Virus record (IMG/VR): IMGVR_UViG_3300027798_000027
Location: 1 to 64,000 of that record
DNA length: 64,000 nucleotides
Reading direction: 5' to 3' (one strand)
Origin: a virus
Taxonomy: Duplodnaviria > Caudoviricetes
Shown: in pieces, positions 13,277 to 45,923 of the stretch
Position numbering within the stretch: position 1 is the first letter of the stretch
Layout of the letters: each line of letters opens with the position of its first letter
Notes under the pieces: generated by a model
The model's input: only the letters and a program-made list of their open reading frames with translations
Database searches by the model: none
What the model was told of the DNA's origin: nothing
Program-made: the position numbers and the translations under genes

Positions 13277-13602
13277 TGTCTAACTACCTTAACTATCAAG
13301 ATGAGATTTACTCTGATCTAGTTGCTGAGTATGGTGAGGATATAACCCTTGCCTACCATAACGCCAATATTTCGGACATGTCTTAATGGGATATGTAGAG
13401 ATATTCCATATGGACTCTGAGGGTGCTGGGTGGCTGGATCTTTCAGATATACCGCCTGAAACCCTGCTGGAGTTAGAGTTAGGCTTATTCAACGAAGGGG
13501 CTTTGTGAGGTATCTCACACCCCAACACACCCCCTACAATTAGAAAATGTCAGCGATAACTGATAGAATAATAACTCAAACAAAAACGAAAGGTGGTCAG
13601 AA

Positions 13603-13788
13603 ATGACTTATACTGTAAAACTAGAAACCTTCAATGGTGCTGTAAAAACTATCAACCTACCTTCTAAGGGTGCGGTTGCTCAATTCATAAACACTTATCC
13701 AAACCAATTACCTGTGGGCGTTCATGTAAAAATGTCCTGTGATTTGCTTGGTGTTCGTGGCACAATAAAGGGAAAGGCGTTAGCATAA
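13603..13788 (+). CDS. Small early hypothetical protein
   Basis: ORF after promoter 13548-13569 and SD GAAAGGTGG. Confidence 0.65.
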   Translation: MTYTVKLETFNGAVKTINLPSKGAVAQFINTYPNQLPVGVHVKMSCDLLGVRGTIKGKALA

Positions 13789-13936
13789 TGATAAGTAGCG
13801 TAATGACTTTTTTGTGTGATGAGTGTAATGGTGCAGGTTATATTTTTTGGGGAGATAACCTTGACTATGATGTAGAAAAGTGCGAATGTAAAAACTTTGC
13901 ACTAGGCACTTTATTTACTACTAAGGAGAACGACTA

Positions 13937-14128
13937 ATGACTAGAAAAGACTACATACAAACCGCTAACATCTTAAAAGAATTTATAGATGAAATTCCTC
14001 AAACCACTTATGAGGATTTAATAGACCAATTTTGTCAATGGTTTAAATCCGATAACGCAAACTTTGACTACGCAAGATTTGAAAAGGCTTGCGGAATTGA
14101 TGAGATTGGATTAGTAAGTGTTAACTAA
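13937..14128 (+). CDS. Small early hypothetical protein (MTRKDY...FDxxRFxxAC family)
   Basis: Widely recurring phage peptide pattern; SD AAGGAG. Confidence 0.7.
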   Translation: MTRKDYIQTANILKEFIDEIPQTTYEDLIDQFCQWFKSDNANFDYARFEKACGIDEIGLVSVN

Positions 14129-14264
14129 TTTAGATTTGCTTGCAATTATTATTGCGCTAAGCGGTTCAATGTTGGTAATGTTTTTGTTTTATAAACAAAA
14201 TGTTGCACAAGATAAAGAAATTCGCAGATTGCGAAATGAATTGCGTAAAGCGTTAAAAGTATAA
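14118..14264 (+). CDS. Small membrane protein
   Basis: GTG start, hydrophobic helix then basic coiled coil. Confidence 0.5.
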   Translation: MLTNLDLLAIIIALSGSMLVMFLFYKQNVAQDKEIRRLRNELRKALKV

Positions 14265-14270
14265 ATAAAA

Positions 14271-14296
14271 ATCCTGGACACGATCTAAAACTGTCC
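14271..14296 (+). ncRNA. Conserved 3'-UTR H-type pseudoknot, copy 1
   Basis: ATC-CT-GGACA-C-GAT-CTAAAAC-TGTCC. Confidence 0.75.
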
Positions 14297-14636
14297 GAAC
14301 ATTTGTTCTAAAAGGCCCGAGGTGCTCGGCGCCTGCGGCGTGTCGTACACAGGTTTATCCACAGGACTATTATGTGATTAAAAACACACTCCAGATTCTC
14401 CAGATTAAGGCGTCTAATTGGATTTTGTCAGTCGTATCTGATAGGATAAAGATATAAAGAAAGAAGGAACAAATGGGTAAAGTAAAAGAAGCACTAATGG
14501 ATATACTAGAGCACGAATACTGCTACGGCTATGGTTGGATATATCAAGGAAATAATGTAGACTTTGATAGTGAGCCTTGCGAGTGTAATCCTCACGCTAT
14601 CTCCGCTGACGAACTAATGGATTGGAAACTAAACTA

Positions 14637-14852
14637 ATGGATAACGAATATAACTATTCTCTTACTACTTCCTATGACGGGAAGTTAATTCATACCCTGC
14701 GAGTTAGCGATATGCTAGAAGCGGTTAATGCTTGGACTAAATGCGTGGACTATGGCTTTGCTAAAGAATACGCAACCTATAACCTATCTGACCCAACAGG
14801 TAAAATGTATACTAAAACCTTCTACACTAACGGAGAGGTCGTAATTAAATAA
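14637..14852 (+). CDS. Small early hypothetical protein
   Basis: ORF track; start coupled to the stop of an upstream 14473-14637 ORF. Confidence 0.6.
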   Translation: MDNEYNYSLTTSYDGKLIHTLRVSDMLEAVNAWTKCVDYGFAKEYATYNLSDPTGKMYTKTFYTNGEVVIK

Positions 14853-15148
14853 TGGGAAGCATAACAGCAATAGGTTTAGCAGATACAACGCTAGACCTAG
14901 AAACACAATTAAAGTATCACTTACAGGGTAATCACTATCCACCAATACCAACAGTAATGGTTCAGCCATGTATTGAGGCTATTGACGCATACTACGATAA
15001 AGATTATTCTCGTAGAATAGAGTTGCCAGTTGTTGATGGCTTTCAGGTTAGTTGGAAGGGCAACACTTGGACTATCGCCAGCGCATTGGTATCACACGCA
15101 CACCTAGAGTGGTTTCTTGAGCCAGCAGATGAGGACTTATATGAGTAA
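14852..15148 (+). CDS. Early hypothetical protein
   Basis: HLQGNHYPP...IELP...HAHLEWF pattern typical of actinophage early genes. Confidence 0.65.
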   Translation: MGSITAIGLADTTLDLETQLKYHLQGNHYPPIPTVMVQPCIEAIDAYYDKDYSRRIELPVVDGFQVSWKGNTWTIASALVSHAHLEWFLEPADEDLYE

Positions 15149-15232
15149 AGACTTGCAAGATAAGTTAGACGCAGTTGCTAAAATTCTAGAACCTATCCTA
15201 TGGGAAACATTAGCAGAAATTGAGGAACAAGA

Positions 15233-15472
15233 ATGATTGATCTAGAAAATGATGATACCATTCAAATTGTGGACTATGTAAAGGTTGATATCTTAACTGC
15301 AGGACAGTTAATGGTTGATGATTGTATTTTAATTGGCGATGAGGTTGTGTCTATTGCAGATATAGTTTCATTACCTGATGGATATACTTTAGAAGTTGTA
15401 AATGATTTTGGTGAAAGAGAAACAATTCAAGTTGGTGAATACGATCAATTTGATTTAATGATGTTACAGTAA
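15233..15472 (+). CDS. Acidic small beta-barrel hypothetical protein
   Basis: 79-aa ORF with SD. Confidence 0.55.
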   Translation: MIDLENDDTIQIVDYVKVDILTAGQLMVDDCILIGDEVVSIADIVSLPDGYTLEVVNDFGERETIQVGEYDQFDLMMLQ

Positions 15473-15554
15473 AGGCCGCCCGAGGGGCGATTTGTCCGAT
15501 TTGTACTAATTAAGGCGAGTTGATATTTTTCCCACATTCTGCTAAAATGTTTAT

Positions 15555-16283
15555 ATGACAACACCACAATTAAAAAGATCACACGACAGAAAGGTTGCGA
15601 ATCTTGTTACAAAAAATGGAAAGCAAGCCGCAATTGCAAACACATTCGGCCTCCCCGCTGGAAAGGCTTATTCATGCCCTGGTGCCACTAGCATTTGTGA
15701 GAGCGTTTGCTACGCAGGAAAACTTGAAAAGTTATTCAAAGGAGTAAGAACTAACCTTCTACACAATTGGGAATTATTAAAAGACGCTGATGAACCTACC
15801 ATGGTTGATCTATTAGAGAATATGATTGCAGATTTTAGAAAAGATTGTGAAAAGAAAAATGCGCCATTGCTATTTCGCATTCATTGGGACGGTGATTTTT
15901 TTAATGATAAGTATACTAGAGCATGGCAATATGTCATCCTTACTAATACAGACATAAAGTTTTGGGTATACACTAGGGTAGAATCTGCAGCGTTAATGCT
16001 TAAGAATATTCCTAATCTATCTTTATACTATTCAACAGATAGTGAGAACAAGCAGATAGGTGTTAGTCTTAAGAAAGATCATGGCATACGCCTTGCATAC
16101 CTTGCAAAGAATTTTGCAATAGGTCAAGCAGATATGAAAGAGTTATTTAATAAGCCTGGGGCTAAGTGTCCTGAGAATCTAAAAGCCATTCCACTTATCT
16201 CAACCGCTGGTTCGGCTTGCGTATCTTGCGGTTTGTGTGTATACTCTAAGAGCGATATCGTATTCTCATCGTCTAAAAAATAG
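15555..16283 (+). CDS. GP88-like protein (Cys-rich, radical-SAM-like fold)
   Basis: FGLPAG..SCPGATSICESVCYA, FRIHWDGDF, WVYTR, C-terminal CPEN...CVSCGLC; leaderless promoter. Confidence 0.7.
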   Translation: MTTPQLKRSHDRKVANLVTKNGKQAAIANTFGLPAGKAYSCPGATSICESVCYAGKLEKLFKGVRTNLLHNWELLKDADEPTMVDLLENMIADFRKDCEKKNAPLLFRIHWDGDFFNDKYTRAWQYVILTNTDIKFWVYTRVESAALMLKNIPNLSLYYSTDSENKQIGVSLKKDHGIRLAYLAKNFAIGQADMKELFNKPGAKCPENLKAIPLISTAGSACVSCGLCVYSKSDIVFSSSKK

Positions 16284-16505
16284 GGGTAATCTTGGAACTA
16301 GTAATTCTAACTATCTTATTTCTCATTGTCTTATTCGCAGGTCTTGGTCATAAATAATGTCCGTTTTGTCCGTTTCGGTGTGGAAGTGTGATACACATCA
16401 CAGATGGCACATCTCAAAATATGAGATTATCCATAAGATAATTTGTATTTTTGACGGAATAATGTTATTCTTAGGTAGTAAGCCAAACCAACAAGAAGGA
16501 GAAAC

Positions 16506-16673
16506 ATGTCAGTAGCAAACGCAATATACAAAGTAGGCGATACCTACACAAGCCAAAAATCTAAATCAACAGGTGTTATCAAAGAAATCGTGCCACAGGC
16601 AAATGGTAATGTTCGTGTTAAGTTAGATGTTAATGGCGCAACTCGCTGGACAACTTGGACATCAAAGTCCTAA
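16506..16673 (+). CDS. Small SH3-like protein (paralogue A)
   Basis: YKVGDTYTSQKSKSTGVIKEIVP...VRVKLDVNGATR; SD AAGGAGA. Confidence 0.65.
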   Translation: MSVANAIYKVGDTYTSQKSKSTGVIKEIVPQANGNVRVKLDVNGATRWTTWTSKS

Positions 16674-16692
16674 TTTTAGCCTAGTGGCTAAA

Positions 16693-16718
16693 GTCCTGAG
16701 CATGACCTAAAACTGCTC
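16693..16718 (+). ncRNA. Conserved 3'-UTR H-type pseudoknot, copy 2
   Basis: GTC-CT-GAGCA-T-GAC-CTAAAAC-TGCTC. Confidence 0.75.
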
Positions 16719-16767
16719 AACTCAATACCCCCTAGCAAACCCACCAACAGAAACGGAAACAAATCAA

Positions 16768-17190
16768 ATGGCAAGAAGCAAACCCATCAGCGTGAAAATC
16801 GCTACTGCTAAGGTTATTAAAGCCTTAGAAACAAAGTTAGCAGAAACAAAGGCTAACTACGCAAAGCAAGACGAGAACGAAGCCAAATACAAACTGGCAC
16901 AAGAAGCATGGTCAAAGGCTCTTGGCAAATGGGCATTAGATAAAATTGCTGATGCTAAAGACCTACGCACTAACTATCGTTCATACAACAGAACCCTTAA
17001 TGTTGATTTTGATTTAATTGTTGATAAAGATGCCTTCCCTCCTGAGCCTGAAAAGGAATATGAGGAAATCCACCGCCATGTCTATAACGAGATGGTAGAG
17101 GAAATGTCTAACGCTATCCGTATTCTACAAATGACAGATGAGGAAGTAGTCAATACTTCTACCTATAACGCTATCGCTAGATACCTTTAA
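16768..17190 (+). CDS. Helical early hypothetical protein
   Basis: 140-aa ORF after a C/A-rich leader. Confidence 0.7.
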   Translation: MARSKPISVKIATAKVIKALETKLAETKANYAKQDENEAKYKLAQEAWSKALGKWALDKIADAKDLRTNYRSYNRTLNVDFDLIVDKDAFPPEPEKEYEEIHRHVYNEMVEEMSNAIRILQMTDEEVVNTSTYNAIARYL

Positions 17191-17274
17191 TAGTTTGGGG
17201 GTATTTGACTATGCCCCCAAAATATGTTAGACTAAATAAGTAATGACCAACCACCACAACAGAAAAGGAAAATC

Positions 17275-17445
17275 ATGACACTAGGCGGATACACTTACCA
17301 AATAGGTGATTTATTCACAACTAGTAGAACAGGGATAACAGGTAGAATTGTAAAGTTCGCACCTATTAACTCTAAACTTACTAGAGTATCCTTACAGTTA
17401 GCAAATGGCGCACAACGCCTTGCTATGGTAAGCACAACTAAATAA
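17275..17445 (+). CDS. Small SH3-like protein (paralogue B)
   Basis: YQIGDLFTTSRTGITGRIVKFAP...TRVSLQLANGAQR; SD AAAGGA. Confidence 0.65.
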   Translation: MTLGGYTYQIGDLFTTSRTGITGRIVKFAPINSKLTRVSLQLANGAQRLAMVSTTK

Positions 17446-17495
17446 TTTATCTCTGACAAGCACTTGGCTTAATTGCTAAGTTATTCCTGAGATAA

Positions 17496-17523
17496 GATTC
17501 CTGAGTAAGAATCTAAACTGCTC
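17496..17523 (+). ncRNA. Conserved 3'-UTR H-type pseudoknot, copy 3
   Basis: GATTC-CT-GAGTA-A-GAATC-TAAAC-TGCTC. Confidence 0.75.
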
Positions 17524-17661
17524 ACTTTTTAATTGCCCTGCAAAAATCCCCCCGAGGAGCGTGATCTAAATCACATCCCATTATGTGAGACTAATTAAGA
17601 ACTAGACTTGCATTTTCCTAATCATCCTGATATTATTGTATTAACAGAAAAGGAACCCCTA

Positions 17662-18126
17662 ATGAGCGAAGCAATGTTACAGGAGCAGTTATCTGTTCCG
17701 TATAATCCCAACCTACTTGTAACCTACAAGGCTATACCTGACACTTACGCCGCACCTGAAAGCCCTACATTCATGACTGATAAGGTTACTCAAATTGAAT
17801 GGGATCTCCATGTTGGACGAACAAATGCAGGAATTGCTGCTAACCGTTCTAGAGACATTGCATGGCTTGAAGATCAAATTCCTGAATGGTATGACCCAAA
17901 CTATTCTAAAGAAGAAGTTTTAAAAGCGCTAGCACATCGCTTTGAGATTAATCCTATGAAACAAATGAGTGTATACGGTACTGTTACATTCAGTGGAACT
18001 ATTAGCATCCCATTGGATGAGATTGAAGACTTTGATCTAAGCAGTGTAACGATTGATGCAGAAGTAAGTTCATATGACTATGAAGCAGATCTTACAGTGG
18101 ATGATGTTTCACTTGAAGAGAATTAA
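17662..18126 (+). CDS. Acidic early hypothetical protein
   Basis: ORF track 17608-18126; SD AAAGGA favours ATG 17662. Confidence 0.65.
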   Translation: MSEAMLQEQLSVPYNPNLLVTYKAIPDTYAAPESPTFMTDKVTQIEWDLHVGRTNAGIAANRSRDIAWLEDQIPEWYDPNYSKEEVLKALAHRFEINPMKQMSVYGTVTFSGTISIPLDEIEDFDLSSVTIDAEVSSYDYEADLTVDDVSLEEN

Positions 18127-18185
18127 TATTTGATAGGGGGCTATCAAAACTGGCGACGGTACAGCCAGTATAAATAAGGGGCCAA

Positions 18186-18212
18186 GGACCTGAGCACGTC
18201 CCAAAACGGCTC
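18186..18212 (+). ncRNA. Conserved 3'-UTR H-type pseudoknot, copy 4
   Basis: GGAC-CT-GAGCA-C-GTCC-CAAAAC-GGCTC. Confidence 0.7.
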
Positions 18213-18350
18213 CACCTCTTTGCAAAAAACTCGGGGGGCCTGAAATGTCCGTTTTGTACCATTTAAGAAGATTAAACCATTTTCCCCAGTCCTAGTTGAC
18301 ATTGGCTGCCATGTCTGATAAACTTAGTTAAAACAACCGAAAGGATAAAA

Positions 18351-19367
18351 ATGGCTCATGATTTAGAAACTCAAAATGGCGTAGCAAGTTTTGCCTCATT
18401 TAGAGAACCTGCTTGGCATAATCTTGGCACAGTATTTGATACTGAAAAAAATACAAGTGAAATGCTTGTTGCTGCTAATCTTAATAATTGGAATGTTAGA
18501 CTAGAGGATTTAGAAATCCCCACCAGTCTAGTATCTGATAAGCAATACCAGTATGTTGTTCGCACTAACCCTACTGATAAATCTCAAACTGATGTTTTGG
18601 GAATTGTTGGGCAGCGTTATGTCCCGCTACAAAATGAGGATTTATTTGCCTTTGGCGATAACATTCTTGATGGTGGTGGGCGTTGGGAAACCGCTGGTTC
18701 AATTAGTGGTGGGCGTGTGGTATTTGGCTCTCTTGCATTAGAGCGTGAAACCGTATTAGACCCTAATGGCGTTGCTGATGTTGTAAAGACTTATTTACTC
18801 ATCAACACTTCACATGATGGTTCAATTGCTATTCAAGCAAGCATAACACCTGTTCGTGTTGTGTGTGCTAATACTCTTAATGTTGCACTTAACCGCACTA
18901 AGAAAAAAGATGGCGTAAAGCAATCTTTCAAAATCCGTCATACCCAAACCGCTGAGGGCAAAATCGCTGTTGCTCGTCAGGCACTGGGCATGGCTAACGC
19001 TTACATGACTGAGTTTGATAAGATGGCTCATGCTATGATAGCAAAAGAAATCTCCGCAAAAGATTTCAACGATATTATTCTTGCTGCTTATCCTAAGCCT
19101 GAATTAGATACTAAGGGCGCAGTAAAGAAATGGGAAAACAAGGTAGATATGATTAACGATATCTATACTGGTGAGTTTAACGGAATGATTAGTGGTAATG
19201 CTTGGGGTGCGTTCAATGCGCTAACTGAGCGTTTAGACTGGTATCGCACTTCCCGTAGTGCAAATGGCGAAAGCATGTTTGCTGCTGCTAGTGGATTTGA
19301 CCCTGCTACCAATGCAGAAAAAAATCGTTTGCTAAGTATTGTTCAAAATACTTTACAAATAGTTTAA
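18351..19367 (+). CDS. DUF932 family phage/plasmid-like protein (TIGR03299-type)
   Basis: MAHDLE...REPAWHNLG...ETAGSISGGRVVF...SHDGS...TPVRVVCANTL...IRHT. Confidence 0.85.
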   Translation: MAHDLETQNGVASFASFREPAWHNLGTVFDTEKNTSEMLVAANLNNWNVRLEDLEIPTSLVSDKQYQYVVRTNPTDKSQTDVLGIVGQRYVPLQNEDLFAFGDNILDGGGRWETAGSISGGRVVFGSLALERETVLDPNGVADVVKTYLLINTSHDGSIAIQASITPVRVVCANTLNVALNRTKKKDGVKQSFKIRHTQTAEGKIAVARQALGMANAYMTEFDKMAHAMIAKEISAKDFNDIILAAYPKPELDTKGAVKKWENKVDMINDIYTGEFNGMISGNAWGAFNALTERLDWYRTSRSANGESMFAAASGFDPATNAEKNRLLSIVQNTLQIV

Positions 19368-19373
19368 CAATAA

Positions 19374-19400
19374 AATCCTGAGCAAGATTTAAAACTGCTC
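19374..19400 (+). ncRNA. Conserved 3'-UTR H-type pseudoknot, copy 5
   Basis: AATC-CT-GAGCA-A-GATT-TAAAAC-TGCTC, 4 nt before tRNA-Asp. Confidence 0.75.
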
Positions 19401-19404
19401 CGCT

Positions 19405-19478
19405 GGTCCCATAGATCAATTGGTTAGATCGTTACCCTGTCACGGTAGAGGCTACGGGTTCAAGTCCCGTTGGGATCG
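19405..19478 (+). tRNA. tRNA-Asp(GTC)
   Basis: GGTCCCA/TGGGATC acceptor, TTACC-CTGTCAC-GGTAG anticodon arm, GGTTCAAGTCC T-arm; no encoded CCA. Confidence 0.95.
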
Positions 19479-19592
19479 CAAGTGCCCGAGTATAACATTT
19501 TTGTTATAATTGTATTACGTTGACATAAGATTTTTCCCATTTTCTCATTACGGATAGTTGACATTTTTCCCATTTTGTAGGATAATTAATTC

Positions 19593-20176
19593 ATGACCAC
19601 AACTAACAAACCACTAACTATAGACGGCCTAATAATGAATATATATGAGGACAACTCTGAACATTTTGACTTTATATATAGCATGAATAATGGAGATTGC
19701 GATTGTTATCTTCACCTTGCGATGAATTTGATTAAGGAGTATGATAGATAATGCTAGGTTATACATATAAGGATATACAAGCATTTGGTAATAGTTTAAC
19801 TTGGGCTATTGATACCGCCAAAAACCAGGGGGATGAACAAAACTATAAACAATTACTAATAGTATGGGACTTCTTTGAAGGCTTGTTAGCAGAAGGTTAT
19901 ATAGATGAAAACACATACTATGGGTAATGTGGCTACGTTGTTATATGCCTGCTTTGATTGTGGCTCTGAGGCTACCCTGGAGCAATTGGACTATGACCAA
20001 AACTGCAGTGACTGTGCTGAACAGAGAGAGTTGGATAAGCAATGACTGATATGGTTGCCGTGCATTACTGGTCAGATATGGCCAACCTTGATCACGCATC
20101 ACAAGTAGAACTATTTAACTTCTGTGCCTGTGAAGAGCAAGATTACTTCCCATACGATGACTGTCCTGTGGTGTAG
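19593..20176 (+). other. Run of four or five very short, translationally coupled early ORFs (first 19593-19751)
   Basis: Overlapping stop/start codons behind TTGACA...TAGGAT/GATAAT promoter; products unknown. Confidence 0.5.
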
Positions 20177-20252
20177 ATCACATCTATATACCTTGCAAAA
20201 GTCCACACATTTTGCTAGAATTGTATTAAGAACCTAGAGAAAGAGACCCACA

Positions 20253-20789
20253 TTGCATACGCTCCATTGGATAGCAACAAAAGCAAAAGATAGACAAGAG
20301 GCCTTTGACATCGTCACTGTTAGTCTTATGAAAAACTCAGACGGAAACCATATGGCTGATTGGTCAGACTGGCATGTCGTAGGTGGTGGCCGCTGGTCAG
20401 ATAGTTCCTATGAAAACTCTTCTGACATGATTATTTCATATGCTGAGAAGCCTGATGAGTTCAAGAAAACAATAGAAGACATCAAGCGCTATCGCATTAA
20501 CTACATGAACGATAAACTTATTAAACTTGATACTGCGTTTGATAACCTTAAATCAGATGTCGTTGATTATATTAGTAATGATTGTAAACTACACGATAAG
20601 CGACAGTTTGATTTTTCTCGCTGGGAAATCACGGAAGCAATAAATATGCTTAACAGTATCTGGACCTGTGATAGTTCCTTCTTTGACCATAATGAATTTA
20701 CATCTAGCCTGCAGTATCTTGAAGAGCGCCTTGACAAACCTGAAGAGGCTGCGCTACAATATCTAGTACCTGTAGACTTCCACTTCTAA
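20253..20789 (+). CDS. Early hypothetical protein
   Basis: WSDWHVVGGGRW motif; ends VPVDFHF. Confidence 0.7.
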   Translation: MHTLHWIATKAKDRQEAFDIVTVSLMKNSDGNHMADWSDWHVVGGGRWSDSSYENSSDMIISYAEKPDEFKKTIEDIKRYRINYMNDKLIKLDTAFDNLKSDVVDYISNDCKLHDKRQFDFSRWEITEAINMLNSIWTCDSSFFDHNEFTSSLQYLEERLDKPEEAALQYLVPVDFHF

Positions 20790-40451: not shown

Positions 40452-40478
40452 GAGCAGTTTTTCAACTTGCTCAGGTTG
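40452..40478 (-). ncRNA. Conserved 3'-UTR H-type pseudoknot, copy 6
   Basis: CAAC-CT-GAGCA-A-GTTG-AAAAAC-TGCTC, 5 nt after hsp20 stop. Confidence 0.75.
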
Positions 40479-40483
40479 TTTTT

Positions 40484-40900
40484 TTACTTTATTTTAATTA
40501 CTTTAGGTTTTTTATCTTCAGGAATTACACGAACAACATTAATTGTTAATAGCCCATCTTTTAGTTCTGCACTAGATACTTCCATATACTCTCCAAGAGC
40601 AAAAGATCGTACAAATTTACGACCAGCGATTCCCTTGTGAACAACCTCAGCATCTGTAACTTCTACAAGTTCTCCCTTAATTACAAGAGTTCCATTGTCT
40701 ACTGACACATCAATGTCTTCTTTTGTAAATCCCGCAATAGCAAGAGATAACCTATATGTATCTTCATCTAATTTAAGAAGATCATACGGAGGGTATGATT
40801 GTGAATTTACTTTATGTGCTGTATTTAAACGGCCTAACTCTCTGTTAAAGCCAATAAAAAAAGGATCATTAAATAGATCCATTGCAAATTGTGTTACCAT
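40484..40900 (-). CDS. Hsp20 small heat-shock protein (IbpA-like)
   Basis: SYPPYDL...LAIAGF...HKGIAGRKFVRSF...LKDGLLTI. Confidence 0.95.
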   Translation of the reverse strand: MVTQFAMDLFNDPFFIGFNRELGRLNTAHKVNSQSYPPYDLLKLDEDTYRLSLAIAGFTKEDIDVSVDNGTLVIKGELVEVTDAEVVHKGIAGRKFVRSFALGEYMEVSSAELKDGLLTINVVRVIPEDKKPKVIKIK

Positions 40901-40994: not shown

Positions 40995-42680
40995 TTAAAC
41001 GTCCTTTTTAGATACAAGTTTGGATATTTCTGGAAACCAAACATAATCTAGTTCACTATTTTTTAATGTATAAAAGGCATCTTCTGGTGTTTCAACCAAT
41101 GGTTTGCCAGCAAGATTAAAACTAGTATTAAGTAATATCCCCATATTTGTTATTTTTTTAAATTCATTCAACAAATTAAAAATTATTGGATTAGACTTGT
41201 CAACTGTCTGTATTCTACAAGTGTTGTCAATGTGGACGACCCCTGGTATTTTTTTAATTGCATCATCTTTTACTGGAAAAGAAATGGTCATGAATTCACT
41301 TTTTTTAATTCTACCCATTTCAAAATATTTACTAGACTCTTCTTCTAATACCATTGCAGCGAATGGGCGATACCATTCTCTTTTTTTAATTCTGTTTACT
41401 TTTTCTTTTGCATCTTTATCTCTGCAATCAAAAAGAATTGATCTATTTCCAAGTGCTCTTGGACCAGCCTCTGCGAGTCCATTATAAACTGCAACACTTT
41501 TCCCATTAGAAATTAATTTTGCAACATCGGATATAGAAACATCTAATCCATTAATATCATCAAGCAAATAGTTTTTACCATTAAAAAATGTATGCTCTAA
41601 TTTATTAATAGTAGAATCTAATGTTGTATCACGATAACACTTCATTGCTGCTCCAATACTATTTCCAGTGTCGTCTGCTAGTGGTTCAAAGAAAAAATTA
41701 ATTTCTGGAAATTGTGTAATATAATAATTATTTGCAACGACATTTAAACCGTATCCACCAGTGATACATACATTTTTAATACCTGTTTTTTCTACATACA
41801 TATTAATCATTGACGCAACTGCTTCTTGAGTTTCTTTTTGAACGTTCCAAGCATAATCTGCATATTCTTGATAATTATTAGTGTTTATTTCTTTTGTTGA
41901 TTTATGTTTTAAATTTAAATAGTTTGCCACTCTCATATCACTAAAAAATTCATGACCAAAATTATAGTCAATAGGTATTGAATCTTTGTTAAATAGTTTA
42001 GGATAGTTTTTATTTTTATTTCCATAAGCAGAAAGCCCCATTGTTTTACCATTTTCAAGTGGGTCTTGTCTAATCAATGTTGTTGCTGTTTCATAAACTT
42101 TAACAATTCCAAACATTGATTTAGCATTAAAATCACAATCTGGATTATCATTTTTTAATAAATCAACAAACTCATGTCCATAATTTTCAAATACCCAAAA
42201 ATTTTTACACAATGTTTTAAAATTATTTGGATAAGATGCTAAATAAACGCTTTCAGATTCTCTAAGAGAATTTCCCCAAACGGACCCATTTCTATCAATT
42301 ACAAAAACAAGTGCTTGGTCAAATCCACTGTCATAAAACGCTAAATTTGCATGAATTAAGTGATGTTCATTGGAATAATCAAATTCTCTGGCAATCTTAA
42401 AATTTTTTAATGCTAGTTTTTTAATTATATTATATACATCTGGCTCTTGCGTTGGAGTTGAATAAGCGTAGTCAACACTTTCTTCTTTTAAATTTATTTC
42501 AAAAAAAGATTTTATTGGAAGTTGATCTCTTTTTGTTTTTGAAAAACGCTCTTCTTTAAAAAAATTAACTATTTTGCCATTTTCAAAAAGACAAATAGAA
42601 GAGTCATGCATTGAAGATACACCAAGTATTTTTGTTATTTTATTGCCCCCTTTAGTAAGTGAACAATTTATTAAAGACAT
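40995..42680 (-). CDS. Carbamoyltransferase (NodU/CmcH family)
   Basis: HDSS..EERFSK, HHLIHA, GKTMGLSAYG, GGYGLN, EAGPRALGNRS, REWYRPFA, LNTSFN. Confidence 0.9.
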   Translation of the reverse strand: MSLINCSLTKGGNKITKILGVSSMHDSSICLFENGKIVNFFKEERFSKTKRDQLPIKSFFEINLKEESVDYAYSTPTQEPDVYNIIKKLALKNFKIAREFDYSNEHHLIHANLAFYDSGFDQALVFVIDRNGSVWGNSLRESESVYLASYPNNFKTLCKNFWVFENYGHEFVDLLKNDNPDCDFNAKSMFGIVKVYETATTLIRQDPLENGKTMGLSAYGNKNKNYPKLFNKDSIPIDYNFGHEFFSDMRVANYLNLKHKSTKEINTNNYQEYADYAWNVQKETQEAVASMINMYVEKTGIKNVCITGGYGLNVVANNYYITQFPEINFFFEPLADDTGNSIGAAMKCYRDTTLDSTINKLEHTFFNGKNYLLDDINGLDVSISDVAKLISNGKSVAVYNGLAEAGPRALGNRSILFDCRDKDAKEKVNRIKKREWYRPFAAMVLEEESSKYFEMGRIKKSEFMTISFPVKDDAIKKIPGVVHIDNTCRIQTVDKSNPIIFNLLNEFKKITNMGILLNTSFNLAGKPLVETPEDAFYTLKNSELDYVWFPEISKLVSKKDV

Positions 42681-42789
42681 GTTCAGGTCTATTATTCCAT
42701 TATACAGGCTTACTTATTTTTTTGCAACTTTAATAGCATTTTTTGGATTTTTTGTCCTTTAAAACAATACTATTATGCTATTTGTTTAA

Positions 42790-43512: not shown

Positions 43513-43543
43513 TATTCTCCTTTTAATACATTATACACTTTCG

Positions 43544-43616
43544 TACCTCTAACGGAATTTGAATCCGTGTTACCGCCGTGAAAGGGCGACGTCCTAGGCC
43601 ACTAGACGATAGAGGC
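43544..43616 (-). tRNA. tRNA-Glu(TTC)
   Basis: GCCTCTA/TAGAGGT acceptor, TCGCC-CTTTCAC-GGCGG, GGATTCAAATTCC. Confidence 0.95.
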
Positions 43617-43620
43617 GTAG

Positions 43621-43691
43621 AGCGGATAGCGGGAATCGGACCCACACATTAACCTTGGCAAGGTTACGCACTACCACTATGCAATATCCGC
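43621..43691 (-). tRNA. tRNA-Gly(GCC)
   Basis: GCGGATA/TATCCGC acceptor, TAACC-TTGCCAA-GGTTA; T-loop reads TCCGATT. Confidence 0.9.
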
Positions 43692-43710: not shown

Positions 43711-44334
43711 TTAAGCAATTATCCAACCACGAAGTAATTGCAAAAATTTATTTAAATATTTTTTCATTATAGCGCTATCCTGAATAGAACTTTCAAACTC
43801 TACACTAGTTTTTGGCTCATTAAAAATTTTGCTTTCACTTAACTCTCCCTGAGTTGCAGAAATAGTTGCAGGATTTGATGGAAGCCCAAGTGGATTGATT
43901 ATTGCAGTAAGAGTTACTGTATCTACTGCTCCAGTTGCAGTTATTGTTTCTACAACTTCTGTTCTAGTTTGTGGAACAGACCAAGTAACTCCTTCTTGAG
44001 AAAAAGTGTTTTGTTGTTCATTATACGTAACTCTTCTATCAACTTCTCCTGCTTTAGGTGCTGGATTATAATATCCACCCGTAGCCTGATGAGTTACTGG
44101 ATCTGCTGATGTTTGTAAAACTACCTGCTTTCCATCAAATGTTCCAGACCCACATACAGATGGTTGACAAGTAATTATGTTTATTACAACTCCACCTTCA
44201 ACTACGGCCCAAACTTGACATGGATCTGCTGCAGAACACTCTCCCGCATTTGCTATTTCTGGAACCGAAATAAATACAAATGATGACGCAATTACGCTAA
44301 AGATTGTACCAATAACTTTATTTTTTAACTTCAT
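43711..44334 (-). CDS. Secreted protein with signal peptide
   Basis: Hydrophobic N-terminus ending PEIANA; Cys pairs. Confidence 0.65.
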   Translation of the reverse strand: MKLKNKVIGTIFSVIASSFVFISVPEIANAGECSAADPCQVWAVVEGGVVINIITCQPSVCGSGTFDGKQVVLQTSADPVTHQATGGYYNPAPKAGEVDRRVTYNEQQNTFSQEGVTWSVPQTRTEVVETITATGAVDTVTLTAIINPLGLPSNPATISATQGELSESKIFNEPKTSVEFESSIQDSAIMKKYLNKFLQLLRGWIIA

Positions 44335-45398: not shown

Positions 45399-45923
45399 TT
45401 AAATACTTACCACGTCAATAGGTCCCATACATGATGGGCTAAACTTAATAGCAGCACCAACTGCTCCTACAACTCTTTTACGAGGATCTTTAGATTTTTC
45501 TGTAGCATTTAAATATCCATATGCATACTCAGAGCCAGAACCCATGGCTAAATAATCTAAATTATATTTAGATAAAGACATATCAATTGCGTTATGCTCA
45601 TATATTTGTCCTCTAATACAAATAATAAGACCTAAATCGCCTTCTTTGGATGTGTCTACCCACCAGTCATTATAAAAATTTCTAAGTTGTTTAATAAACT
45701 TAGTTTGCATAAACTTGTCTGTGTCTTTAATGTCTGGTATATATGGATTAAAATTATACCTAATACGTTCCCCATCTAATGCCCCCGCATATCCAAGTAA
45801 ATACGGTCCAAGTTTCCAAACTTTTGGTGCTGTTAACGCAAGTATAGTATTGTCATCAGAAGCCCCACGATCACCAGCCATAAAAATCTTGTCTTCATGG
45901 CGAACTACAGCCAATACCGTCAT
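45399..45923 (-). CDS. Ntn-hydrolase, HslV/proteasome-beta-like protease
   Basis: Met-Thr N-terminus, MAGDRGAS, KVW, LGYAG, AMGSGSEYAYG. Confidence 0.8.
   Translation of the reverse strand: MTVLAVVRHEDKIFMAGDRGASDDNTILALTAPKVWKLGPYLLGYAGALDGERIRYNFNPYIPDIKDTDKFMQTKFIKQLRNFYNDWWVDTSKEGDLGLIICIRGQIYEHNAIDMSLSKYNLDYLAMGSGSEYAYGYLNATEKSKDPRKRVVGAVGAAIKFSPSCMGPIDVVSI

Follow-up and report, generated by a model that had tools for sequence, protein, structure and literature searches.

Motif copies in the phage window

The window analysed here, a 64,000-nt stretch from the 87.6-kb record of a freshwater phage, carries six copies of a short RNA motif behind genes, together with one divergent candidate. 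They are given below with their covariance-model scores and with the one tRNA gene that bears on their interpretation.

14271..14296, + strand: copy 1, AUC-CU-GGACA-C-GAU-CUAAAAC-UGUCC, 28.3 bits
16693..16718, + strand: copy 2, GUC-CU-GAGCA-U-GAC-CUAAAAC-UGCUC, 44.6 bits
17496..17523, + strand: copy 3, GAUUC-CU-GAGUA-A-GAAUC-UAAAC-UGCUC, 41.3 bits
18186..18212, + strand: copy 4, GGAC-CU-GAGCA-C-GUCC-CAAAAC-GGCUC, 34.1 bits
19374..19400, + strand: copy 5, AAUC-CU-GAGCA-A-GAUU-UAAAAC-UGCUC, 42 bits
19405..19479, + strand: tRNA-Asp (GUC), its 5' end being the expected RNase P cut site, 4 nt past copy 5
40452..40478, - strand: copy 6, CAAC-CU-GAGCA-A-GUUG-AAAAAC-UGCUC, 46.2 bits
42661..42690, - strand: candidate divergent seventh copy, AGAC-CU-GAACA-U-GUCU-UUAAUAAAU-UGUUC, 19 bits, E 0.004

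The six copies had been listed in a preliminary description of this DNA, and they are present as written there, at the same coordinates. A covariance model built from 150 copies and run unfiltered over both strands of the window returns the same six (E 3e-10 to 1.4e-5) and one partial match (E 0.004), with nothing further below E 0.4; a descriptor scan of the remainder of the record found no copies. The partial match (42671-42690, minus strand, model positions 4-23 only) falls in the candidate seventh copy, where both stems can pair and loop 3 is 9 nt long and lacks AAAC. This candidate lies just past a TTGCAA-N17-TATAAT site (recognised by eye), overlaps the first ATG of a carbamoyltransferase ORF, and may be a chance match.

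If the distance is counted from the last base of the stop codon to the C of the CU linker, copies 1 to 6 lie 9, 22, 55, 63, 10 and 9 nt behind their upstream genes. Copy 1 follows the TAA stop (14262-14264) of a 48-aa ORF (14118-14264), and copy 2 follows ORF 16506-16673 and precedes ORF 16768-17190 by 50 nt. The gene before copy 5 encodes a DUF932 protein (18351-19367), and the tRNA-Asp directly behind that copy does not encode its CCA. Copy 6 follows the TAA stop of an Hsp20 gene (40484-40900, minus strand; phrog_432, E 3.6e-37). The placement originally proposed, on the sense strand 5-60 nt after a stop, holds when ORFs of at least 40 aa are considered.

An H-type pseudoknot on the sense strand

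There is strong support for reading the motif as an H-type pseudoknot RNA of about 27 nt, formed by the sense strand. Its spacing is fixed (CU + 5 + 7 + AAAC + 5 = 23 nt). Stem 1 has 3-6 covarying pairs and is closed by C-G, loop 1 is CU, and the five pairs of stem 2 are followed by one unpaired A or U; loop 3 ends in AAAC and could line the minor groove of stem 1. The covariation first noticed among the six copies persists in the alignment of 150: 97.6% of 1350 pair cells are paired, compared with 77.1% in shuffles and at most 40% for slid partners, and eight of the nine pairs show double changes. Stem 1 reaches at least 3 bp in 137 of 140 pattern-only matches. The exchange in stem 2 between GAGCA/UGCUC and GGACA/UGUCC, the latter being the form of copy 1, is likewise borne out in IMG/VR, where the complementary combinations account for at least 137 and at least 104 unique motif-like matches, respectively, while the mismatched GGACA/UGCUC and GAGCA/UGUCC occur once and twice; these variants behave as a natural double-mutant cycle. 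As to the remaining stem-2 variants, the G-U pair recognised earlier is confirmed in copy 3 (GAGUA/UGCUC), but the A.G mismatch at the terminal stem-2 pair of copy 4 (GAGCA/GGCUC) had gone unflagged. The CU linker also stands, in 41 of 45 matches with a 2-nt linker and a stem 1 of at least 3 bp, from a scan that did not impose CU. Strong sequence conservation extends to about 19 of 27 positions, which exceeds the needs of pairing alone, and the motif occurs far more often than expected by chance.

Covarying stems alone cannot separate RNA from single-stranded DNA, which leaves a DNA-level element to be considered, such as a hairpin or cruciform at which replication or nicking takes place or a DNA-binding protein attaches. 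We nevertheless regard such an element as scarcely credible. Stem 2 contains 21 G.U pairs and only two non-pairs (150 copies, with one mismatch tolerated by selection), which argues that the sense strand is what folds, and the A.C pairs required for folding of the opposite strand are missing. Moreover, two interleaved helices make an RNA-type fold, and the copies are always co-oriented with flanking genes and in register with stop codons. The early preference for an RNA structure over a DNA operator is upheld by the G.U pairs, the co-orientation and the stop register.

Placement behind stop codons

The distance from stop codon to core has both its floor and its peak at 9 nt, in two independent samples. 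In the first, 33 copies lie at 9 nt, a further 17 at 10 nt and just 2 closer than 9 nt; the independent GGACA sample has 16 at 9 nt and none below. With the core starting at least 9 nt past the stop, the first paired base lies at least 4 nt past it, and 6-bp forms of stem 1 are seen only at distances from 12 nt upward. The start of stem 1 lies a median of 10 nt from the nearest sense-strand stop, compared with about 260-275 nt for antisense ORFs. We consider the fold, the strand and the stop rule of at least 9 nt demonstrated. Among the exceptions are 11 bacterial copies in which the UGA stop of a mini-ORF falls within the knot itself; this breaks the rule and means that ribosomes would have to melt the knot.

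Distances to the next start codon are not fixed; they spread widely, most of them within 17-39 nt and some far longer. Many copies lie within operons, where 15-30 nt separate them from the following ribosome-binding site. A tRNA begins 4-14 nt downstream of 20 of 180 copies (11%), and none was found within 200 nt upstream of these 180. Among 116 upstream ORFs, DUF932 (22) and Hsp20 (6), the families that precede copies 5 and 6, recur; both also precede the knot in divergent phages, and the order DUF932, knot, tRNA-Asp is repeated in other phage contigs.

At least five U residues fall within +24..+31 of 47 of 180 copies, compared with 5 in the control window, and U-rich tracts follow 33 of 104 copies in the second sample, an overall range of 26-32% (control 3%). 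Together with the ACUUUUU directly 3' of copies 3 and 6 and the presence of only two terminator-like sites, both weak, on the plus strand of the 7-kb early region, these tracts would fit a pseudoknot that forms in the RNA exit channel and, with the U tract, pauses or releases RNA polymerase. However, most copies have no such tract, the U run is usually set off from stem 2 by two bases other than U, and the ribosome-binding site of the next gene is close behind many copies. Copy 2 is spanned by one RNA-library contig (16567-16776), so the knot is not an obligatory terminator. We therefore think pausing or termination an improbable primary role.

Distribution and relation to known RNAs

Beside this freshwater phage, the pseudoknot is placed after genes in hundreds of unrelated phages and in some bacteria, and the phages and hosts range across many phyla. 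Rfam holds no match at E values up to 10, in keeping with the initial failure to assign a named family, nothing like it is described in the searchable literature, and we found it in no RNA catalogue.

The closest known element is the coremin xrRNA (xrRNA-C) of plant and fungal RNA viruses, a likeness that the preliminary description missed. Coremin and its Watson-Crick variant (xrRNA-WCC) occur in beny-, cucumo- and many other eukaryotic RNA viruses (Dilweg et al. 2019, PMC6546385; 2023, PMC10520033; 2023, PMC10321173). The phage G-W-C ... G-W-C-K-U-W-AAAC-U parallels coremin GUC-CGAA-GAC-GUUAAAC-U: both have a short stem 1 (3-5 bp) whose closing pair, C-G, is sequence-specific and is followed by U-A and G-C. 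In both, the interval between the stem-1 G and AAAC is exactly 6 nt, U comes next, and the hairpin loop forms a pseudoknot with bases past AAAC. The coremin residues A16-A20 and the closing pair are essential (PMC6546385). The GAG/CUC pseudoknot of xrRNA-WCC equals the outer three pairs of phage GAGCA/UGCUC, and these elements too often sit just past the last ORF, in one WCC example 8 nt behind it. By contrast, the phage loop is 8 nt long (CUGAGCAW) and its second position is U where coremin has G, loop 1 consists of CU instead of one C/U or G, and stem 2 has five Watson-Crick pairs where coremin has three or non-canonical contacts. The hosts differ as well, being bacteria, which lack Xrn1.

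Both coremin and its Watson-Crick variant halt Xrn1, act as obstacles to scanning ribosomes and promote -1 frameshifting; both require a second hairpin for Xrn1 resistance, and the variant still stimulates frameshifting without it (PMC10520033, PMC10321173). Given how nearly every base of stem 1 and loop 3 agrees with the coremin consensus, the phage knot might block machinery moving 5' to 3' in the same way: RNase J, RNase E scanning from the 5' end, or post-termination or scanning ribosomes. Such a block would protect or insulate the RNA behind the knot, not the gene in front, and we think it unlikely for several reasons. It is the upstream stop, not the downstream gene, that sets the position of the knot, and a knot 4-14 nt ahead of a tRNA that RNase P detaches in any case would bring no gain for the downstream RNA. 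Position 2 of the loop is U where coremin requires G, and the downstream hairpin is not conserved or enriched (63 of 174 copies compared with 60.4 +/- 5.8 in shuffles). Two of five motif-bearing bins (Polynucleobacter and Coxiellaceae MAGs, which may be incomplete) have no RNase J match.

In dimensions and layout the knot also resembles the luteovirus and enamovirus frameshift pseudoknots of BWYV, PEMV-1 and ScYLV (PMC10321173). Shared features are a short stem 1, a loop 1 of 1-2 nt with C as its first base, one unpaired base at the junction, an A-rich loop 3 in the stem-1 minor groove, and a location only a few nucleotides past the A-site codon of the ribosome. Unlike these, the phage knot follows a stop codon rather than a slippery heptamer and lies between genes rather than in an ORF overlap. 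The 9 nt before the phage core are not conserved, and apart from running into the next gene, the frame continued past the knot shows no excess of open reading.

Reported targets of RNase P include the acceptor arm of TYMV RNA, which is a pseudoknot, as well as some sites between the cistrons of mRNAs. The phage knot has the strand order of TYMV-type arms (5' strand of stem 1, loop, 5' strand of stem 2, 3' strand of stem 1, loop, 3' strand of stem 2, A(CCA)), and its stems 2 and 1, stacked, could mimic a tRNA acceptor arm as a helix of 9-11 bp. RNase P would then cut at CU|GAGCA as punctuation, and the downstream RNA would begin with a 5'-terminal hairpin. As in TYMV-type arms and other non-tRNA substrates of RNase P, the helix ends in a G-C pair preceded by U: the U is conserved in 41 of 45 matches of the scan without imposed CU, 137 of 150 copies have G-C as their first stem-2 pair, and the next base is A in 62%. 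ACC directly follows 27 of 174 copies (1.3% of control windows), ACCA follows 15 of 174, and the universality of RNase P would fit a host range over many phyla. Yet CC(A) is confined to a minority of copies (ACCA to 9%) and ACC to none of the six in the window, and its presence does not track CCA encoding in the contig's own tRNA genes (4/17 vs 10/50). The knot is internal to mRNAs, not at a genome 3' end, and has no equivalents of the T, anticodon and D arms; a cut within it would destroy it and leave the 3' end of the upstream gene bare. On balance we give acceptor mimicry little credence.

The preliminary description had likened the motif to preQ1-I and ToxI and proposed an aptamer or small ribozyme. 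Small H-type pseudoknots with an A-rich loop are common to all three, but the genomic context of the phage knot differs: its copies do not form tandem arrays next to a toxin gene, the neighbourhood has neither toxin nor queuosine genes, copies are not found in 5' leaders of queuosine genes, and neither family matches in Rfam at E up to 10. More generally, the knot might bind a host or phage protein or a small ligand in riboswitch fashion, or be a very small self-cleaving ribozyme. Small ligand-binding pseudoknots are similarly compact, with an A-rich loop 3, and the conservation beyond pairing needs would suit a binding site. Several copies per genome lie behind unrelated genes, with no gene class associated, and a search that was not systematic for this purpose brought up no partner protein. 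Copies follow stop codons instead of lying in 5' leaders, the riboswitch and ribozyme models of Rfam give no match at E up to 10, and to our knowledge 27 nt is below the size of natural self-cleaving classes. The aptamer and ribozyme proposals find no support, and we see only a slim chance for this group of functions as a whole.

A possible cap at the 3' ends of cistrons

The function that we tentatively favour, inferred from position alone and held at somewhat less than even confidence, is that of a self-contained roadblock that caps a cistron at its 3' end; a block of this kind, or a substitute for a terminator, was among the options raised at the outset. Stop anchoring, and the tRNA or U-rich tract behind some copies, suggest it. 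Each copy would be a cis-acting RNA that needs no dedicated protein and forms part of the sense transcript where a cistron ends. The 3' edge of the ribosome footprint lies about 9 nt past the A-site codon, and the helicase point of the ribosome is some 11 nt away from the first base of the P site; from these dimensions, 9 nt would be the nearest spot at which the knot stays folded with a ribosome on the stop codon. The transcript would end in the U-rich tract behind the knot or be cut, for example by RNase P at the downstream tRNA, and 3'-to-5' exonucleases would then halt at the knot as at a mechanical obstacle. The upstream message would thereby be stabilised and the boundary between adjoining cistrons insulated.

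Several observations count against such a cap. Its stems are short (3-6 and 5 bp), and RNase R, or PNPase with a helicase, might pass them. Operon-internal copies form 3' ends only upon cutting or termination there, a U-rich tract follows only about a quarter to a third of copies and a tRNA only 11%, and the 11 bacterial copies with an internal stop violate the 9-nt rule. Promoter-like sites downstream of copies 1, 4 and 5 (for copy 4, TTGACA-17-TAAACT at 18296-18324) would speak for a cap, but such sites are not enriched in the region, with 20 found and 22.8 expected from shuffles.

REP and terminator hairpins are 3' stem-loops that stabilise bacterial mRNA segments and are proposed barriers to PNPase and RNase II. 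Like them, the knot directly follows a cistron and in some cases has a U tract, and the barrier role would correspond to the cap that we rank first. Unlike these hairpins, which are long, GC-rich and not conserved in sequence, it is compact and keeps most of its positions.

The knot in the window and its phage

The six copies in the window of the roughly 27-nt H-type pseudoknot (hereafter the knot: stem 1, a CU linker, a 5-bp stem 2 and a loop 3 with AAAC) are typical members of a real, widespread and uncatalogued structured RNA. All six are present where the preliminary description had placed them, in a common frame of stem 1, CU, 5 nt, 1 nt, 7 nt that include the 3' half of stem 1, AAAC and a 5-nt complement. 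Clustered copies are spaced 0.7-2.4 kb apart and one further copy lies 21 kb off; all are single and dispersed. The G-U variant described for stem 2 is indeed found, in copy 3, but an A.G mismatch in the last stem-2 pair of copy 4 had escaped notice.

Copies of the knot and a possible relative in the window. Stop-to-core distance runs from the end of the stop codon to the C of CU, where the invariant core begins.
14271-14296, plus strand: copy 1, stem 2 GGACA/UGUCC; stop-to-core distance 9 nt
16693-16718, plus strand: copy 2; 22 nt
17496-17523, plus strand: copy 3; 55 nt
18186-18212, plus strand: copy 4; 63 nt
19374-19400, plus strand: copy 5, between a DUF932 gene and a tRNA-Asp gene; 10 nt
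40478-40452, minus strand: copy 6, after an Hsp20 gene; 9 nt
42661-42690, minus strand: possible knot-like element AGAC-CU-GAACA-U-GUCU-UUAAUAAAU-UGUUC; partial covariance-model match at 42671-42690

Both strands of the window were searched without filters with a covariance model of 150 copies, which returned exactly these six copies (E 3e-10 to 1.4e-5) and one partial, divergent match at 42671-42690 on the minus strand; no other match in the window was better than E 0.4, and the other 23.6 kb of the record are free of copies. In the possible knot-like element loop 3 is 9 nt long and lacks AAAC. This element sits directly behind a promoter-like TTGCAA-N17-TATAAT, at the predicted 5' end of a carbamoyltransferase transcript. 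Directly behind copy 1 is a GC-rich stretch (14297-14365, plus strand) with short hairpins such as CCGAG-GUG-CUCGG, in a genome of 35% G+C; its folding energy is no better than that of shuffles (z -1.2).

The source record is 87.6 kb long, the window being its first 64 kb, and it encodes a DnaE-type polymerase that shares 55% identity with the polymerase of large Streptomyces phages. Many studies of freshwater and lake metagenomes contain DNA nearly identical to the window, and four lake-water metatranscriptome libraries yield contigs 90-99% identical to positions 13500-20500. The window phage is a common lake lineage with several co-occurring strains. One RNA-library contig runs through copy 2; these RNA data are assembled contigs, in which gaps or low depth at copies 1, 3, 4 and 5 are no evidence of transcript ends. 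One strain variant carries a 2-nt insertion (TA) inside copy 2, after 16706.

Fold, strand and distribution

The fold of the knot, the strand on which it forms and its rule of spacing from stop codons are established by comparison among copies. When IMG/VR was scanned with the letters of stem 2 fixed and stem 1 left free, matches fell on at least 120 contigs, and 137 of 140 among the matches listed had three or more stem-1 pairs in the predicted register. Across 150 distinct copies, standard pairs fill 97.6% of pair cells, as against 77.1% after shuffling and at most 40% with slid partners. Both sides have changed in 8 of the 9 pairs, so that the covariation first described from six copies holds in this larger alignment. 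Stem 2 also offers a natural double-mutant cycle across all of IMG/VR: of the matched combinations, GAGCA/UGCUC gave at least 137 motif-like matches and GGACA/UGUCC at least 104 unique ones, the mismatched combinations only 1 and 2. The CU linker was present in 41 of 45 matches of a scan that did not impose it.

Because the 150 copies contain G.U pairs on the sense strand, with hardly any non-pairs, and because copies always have the orientation of their flanking genes, the folded molecule is the sense transcript, as the preliminary description had argued. The same strand evidence speaks against an element acting at the level of DNA, which we regard as very unlikely and place fifth and last among the rival explanations.

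One mismatched control pattern, CTGGACA-N7-AAACTGCTC, recovered about 110 near-identical copies of a single sequence (L364-L483) on IMG/VR prophage-derived contigs of about 40 kb, none of them with stem-1 pairing. This sequence is unrelated to the knot and is probably coding; its abundance means that raw pattern counts need de-duplication.

Hundreds of unrelated phage contigs carry the knot, as do genome bins of many bacterial phyla, including Saccharibacteria, Cyanobacteria, Bacillota, Bacteroidota, Pseudomonadota, Thermodesulfobacteriota and others; the stem-1 signature is present in 54 of 121 pattern matches in bacterial bins. A BLAST search of cultured phages with a 33-nt copy gave few usable matches, among them a clear copy in cyanophage S-RIM4, at 45617-45639 of MK493321.1 and 14 nt past a stop codon. 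Megablast of the window region against phage records found no match.

Spacing from stop codons

The stop-to-core distance has a hard lower limit, or floor, of 9 nt, where it also peaks.

Stop-to-core distances (copies) in sample 1 and in an independent GGACA sample
Less than 9 nt: 2 in sample 1, 0 in the GGACA sample
9 nt: 33 in sample 1, 16 in the GGACA sample
10 nt: 17 in sample 1, 3 in the GGACA sample
11 nt: 6 in sample 1, 7 in the GGACA sample
12 nt: 12 in sample 1, 1 in the GGACA sample
13 nt: 11 in sample 1, 0 in the GGACA sample

The floor holds for the invariant core and not for the variable start of stem 1. At 9 nt stem 1 has 3-5 bp, and 6-bp stems appear from 12 nt only, so that the first paired base is never less than 4 nt from the stop codon. 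Downstream, spacing to the next start codon or Shine-Dalgarno sequence is broadly distributed, with no fixed value. When the stop codon occupies the A site, the ribosome covers about 9 nt past it and unwinds RNA to about +11; from this geometry we infer that the floor marks the closest position at which the knot could stay folded during termination.

Two further candidates were rejected. Stop-codon read-through would yield only short in-frame continuations (median 4-16 codons), the longer cases not being distinguished from entry into the next gene, and ORFs that use the UGA of CUGAGCA as their stop are not the rule in phages, only 6 of 154 having at least 50 open codons.

Flanking sequence and neighbouring genes

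Among 116 upstream ORFs, 22 encode DUF932 and 6 Hsp20 proteins, the same families that precede copies 5 and 6, and none belongs to a capsid, tail or other virion protein family. A tRNA gene begins 4-14 nt downstream of 20 of 180 copies and is tRNA-Asp in 16 of these, as behind copy 5; none of the 180 lies within 200 nt downstream of a tRNA. The order DUF932 gene, knot, tRNA-Asp (18351-19479 in the window, plus strand) is kept at about 16 related loci in divergent phage contigs (e.g. L030, L050, L086, L101 and L112), with a gap of only 4-14 nt between knot and tRNA. The tRNA-Glu and tRNA-Gly genes of the window (43543-43691, minus strand) have no knot in front, tRNA-Gly starting 19 nt past the stop of the ORF at 43711-44334; the knot is therefore no general requirement of phage tRNA genes.

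Substrates of RNase P, like the tRNA acceptor end, carry a 3' RCCA tail, a G-C pair at the helix end and a U at -1. Mimicry of such a substrate ranks second among the rival explanations. The knot has the U at -1 and the end G-C pair; directly behind stem 2, 62% of copies have A and 15.5% have ACC, which is 12-fold enriched, and G is depleted over seven positions. ACC is found behind none of the six window copies, and whether ACC(A) follows a knot showed no relation to the presence of CCA-encoding tRNA genes on its contig.

A pause or termination signal ranks third. Intrinsic (Rho-independent) terminators consist of a GC-rich stem followed directly by a U tract, and a U-rich tract lies behind 26% and 32% of copies in two samples, compared with 3% in a control window; copies 3 and 6 are followed by ACUUUUU. 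A terminator scan calls none of the six window copies, and copy 2 is read through in the RNA-library contig that spans it.

Comparison with known RNA families

The knot matches no named family, as had been supposed: Rfam, searched with gathering thresholds for the whole window and with E relaxed to 10 for 14200-19500, returned only tRNA and noise, and searches of the literature on phage and metagenome pseudoknots, xrRNA and RNase J, and with the motif letters, gave nothing that describes it, so far as this literature is searchable. Two suggested resemblances did not survive. ToxI and other type III antitoxin RNAs form tandem repeats beside a toxin (ToxN-like) gene; the knot copies are single and dispersed, with no tandem array and no Rfam match. 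The preQ1-I riboswitch sits in the 5' leader of queuosine or transport genes; the knot follows the stops of unrelated genes, and neither the gathering score nor a threshold of E 10 brings up preQ1-I in Rfam. A protein or ligand site, or a ribozyme, ranks fourth among the rivals. Luteovirus-type -1 frameshift pseudoknots, which lie within overlapping ORFs with a slippery heptamer 5-9 nt upstream, share the dimensions of the knot; however, the knot is intergenic and preceded by a stop codon, with no slippery heptamer, and positions -12 to -4 carry less than 0.2 bit each.

The closest likeness is to coremin (xrRNA-C) of eukaryotic RNA viruses, GUC-CGAA-GAC-GUUAAAC-UAC followed by a second hairpin (PMC6546385, PMC10520033, PMC10321173), for which the phage consensus reads GWC-CUGAGCAW-GWC-KUWAAAC-UGCUC. 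The 5' hairpin of coremin has 3-5 bp and a C-G loop-closing pair, for which U-A is tolerated and G-C is not, and its AAAC-U is essential at a fixed distance past the hairpin, G9..A15-A17-C18-U19 (PMC6546385). The two RNAs agree in stem 1, the closing pair, the 6 nt to AAAC and the U that follows. Of 150 knot copies, 141 have the C-G closing pair that coremin requires and 8 have G-C. The 6-nt distance from the stem-1 G to AAAC is shared by all copies found, both AAAC and this spacing having been fixed in the search patterns, and U follows in 99%. The Watson-Crick variant, xrRNA-WCC, uses the same GAG/CUC pairing as the knot. The coremin loop, however, follows YGAD, or YGNNAD if longer, with G needed at position 2 (PMC10520033), whereas the knot loop, C-U-G-A-G-C-A-W, fits in its first Y and final A-D and has U at position 2. 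Moreover, Xrn1 resistance of coremin and xrRNA-WCC needs a second hairpin of at least 4 bp directly downstream, whereas hairpins of at least 4 bp starting 0-3 nt after stem 2 are not enriched behind the knot (63 of 174 copies, as against 60.4 +/- 5.8 shuffled), where mean folding energy does not differ from that of shuffles either. Because both the position-2 G and the downstream hairpin fail, the knot falls outside the coremin family as defined; it may nevertheless work like coremin.

Proposed function

The knot combines 27 nt, about 19 conserved positions and a spacing from stop codons that is sharp to one nucleotide. Its wide spread and this spacing imply that something universal must be exploited, whether the ribosome, RNase P, exonucleases or pure mechanics. 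Three features tie the knot to the gene in front: its anchoring to the stop codon, the tRNA or U tract that some copies have behind them, and its conserved position behind certain genes. For this reason we rank first, as the most likely function, a roadblock at the 3' boundary of the preceding gene. An RNA end would arise by termination in the U tract, or by a cut such as that of RNase P at an adjacent tRNA, and 3' exonucleases would then stop at the knot. Against this stand the short stems, the many copies inside operons and the RNA-library contig that spans copy 2.

First among the rivals is a coremin-like block to 5'-to-3' machinery, which the shared AAAC-U geometry would suit. A match to RNase J is absent from 2 of 5 knot-bearing genome bins examined (metagenome-assembled, and possibly incomplete), which argues against RNase J as a universal target. 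A further, rather improbable reading is that the knot is the prokaryotic-virus counterpart of coremin, a 27-nt protein-free mechanical roadblock with which phages of many bacterial phyla punctuate long messages, halting exonucleases, and possibly also RNase E scanning or ribosomes, at the boundaries between genes.

To our knowledge, the processing and stabilisation of messages from phage early regions, which are long arrays of tiny genes, are largely obscure outside a few model phages. Should the knot prove a roadblock, no earlier class of exoribonuclease-resistant RNA would be on record for bacteria and their viruses, as far as can be searched, and the knot would also be a very small portable part with which to stabilise or insulate cistrons in synthetic operons. 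A true counterpart of coremin would make roadblock RNAs a strategy common to viruses of bacteria and eukaryotes; if instead RNase P cuts the knot, tRNA-style punctuation would extend to phage mRNAs. The knot merits an Rfam model, as genome annotation currently misses it.

A conserved mini-ORF in bacterial genome bins

In 11 bacterial genome bins of several phyla, a conserved mini-ORF of 20-26 aa with its own Shine-Dalgarno sequence ends at the UGA within CUGAGCA of the knot (L235:6845-6907, plus strand; L134, L146, L161, L175, L183, L205, L207, L218, L222 and L229). This class breaks the 9-nt rule of the phage copies. NCBIfam holds no match to the mini-ORF. Its rough consensus is M-K-R-F-M-V-P-R-x-A-H-C-x-E-G-C-x-x-x-S, nearby genes include Fur-family, ArsR-family and NifU-like members, and the product might serve as a leader peptide or as a small metal-related protein.
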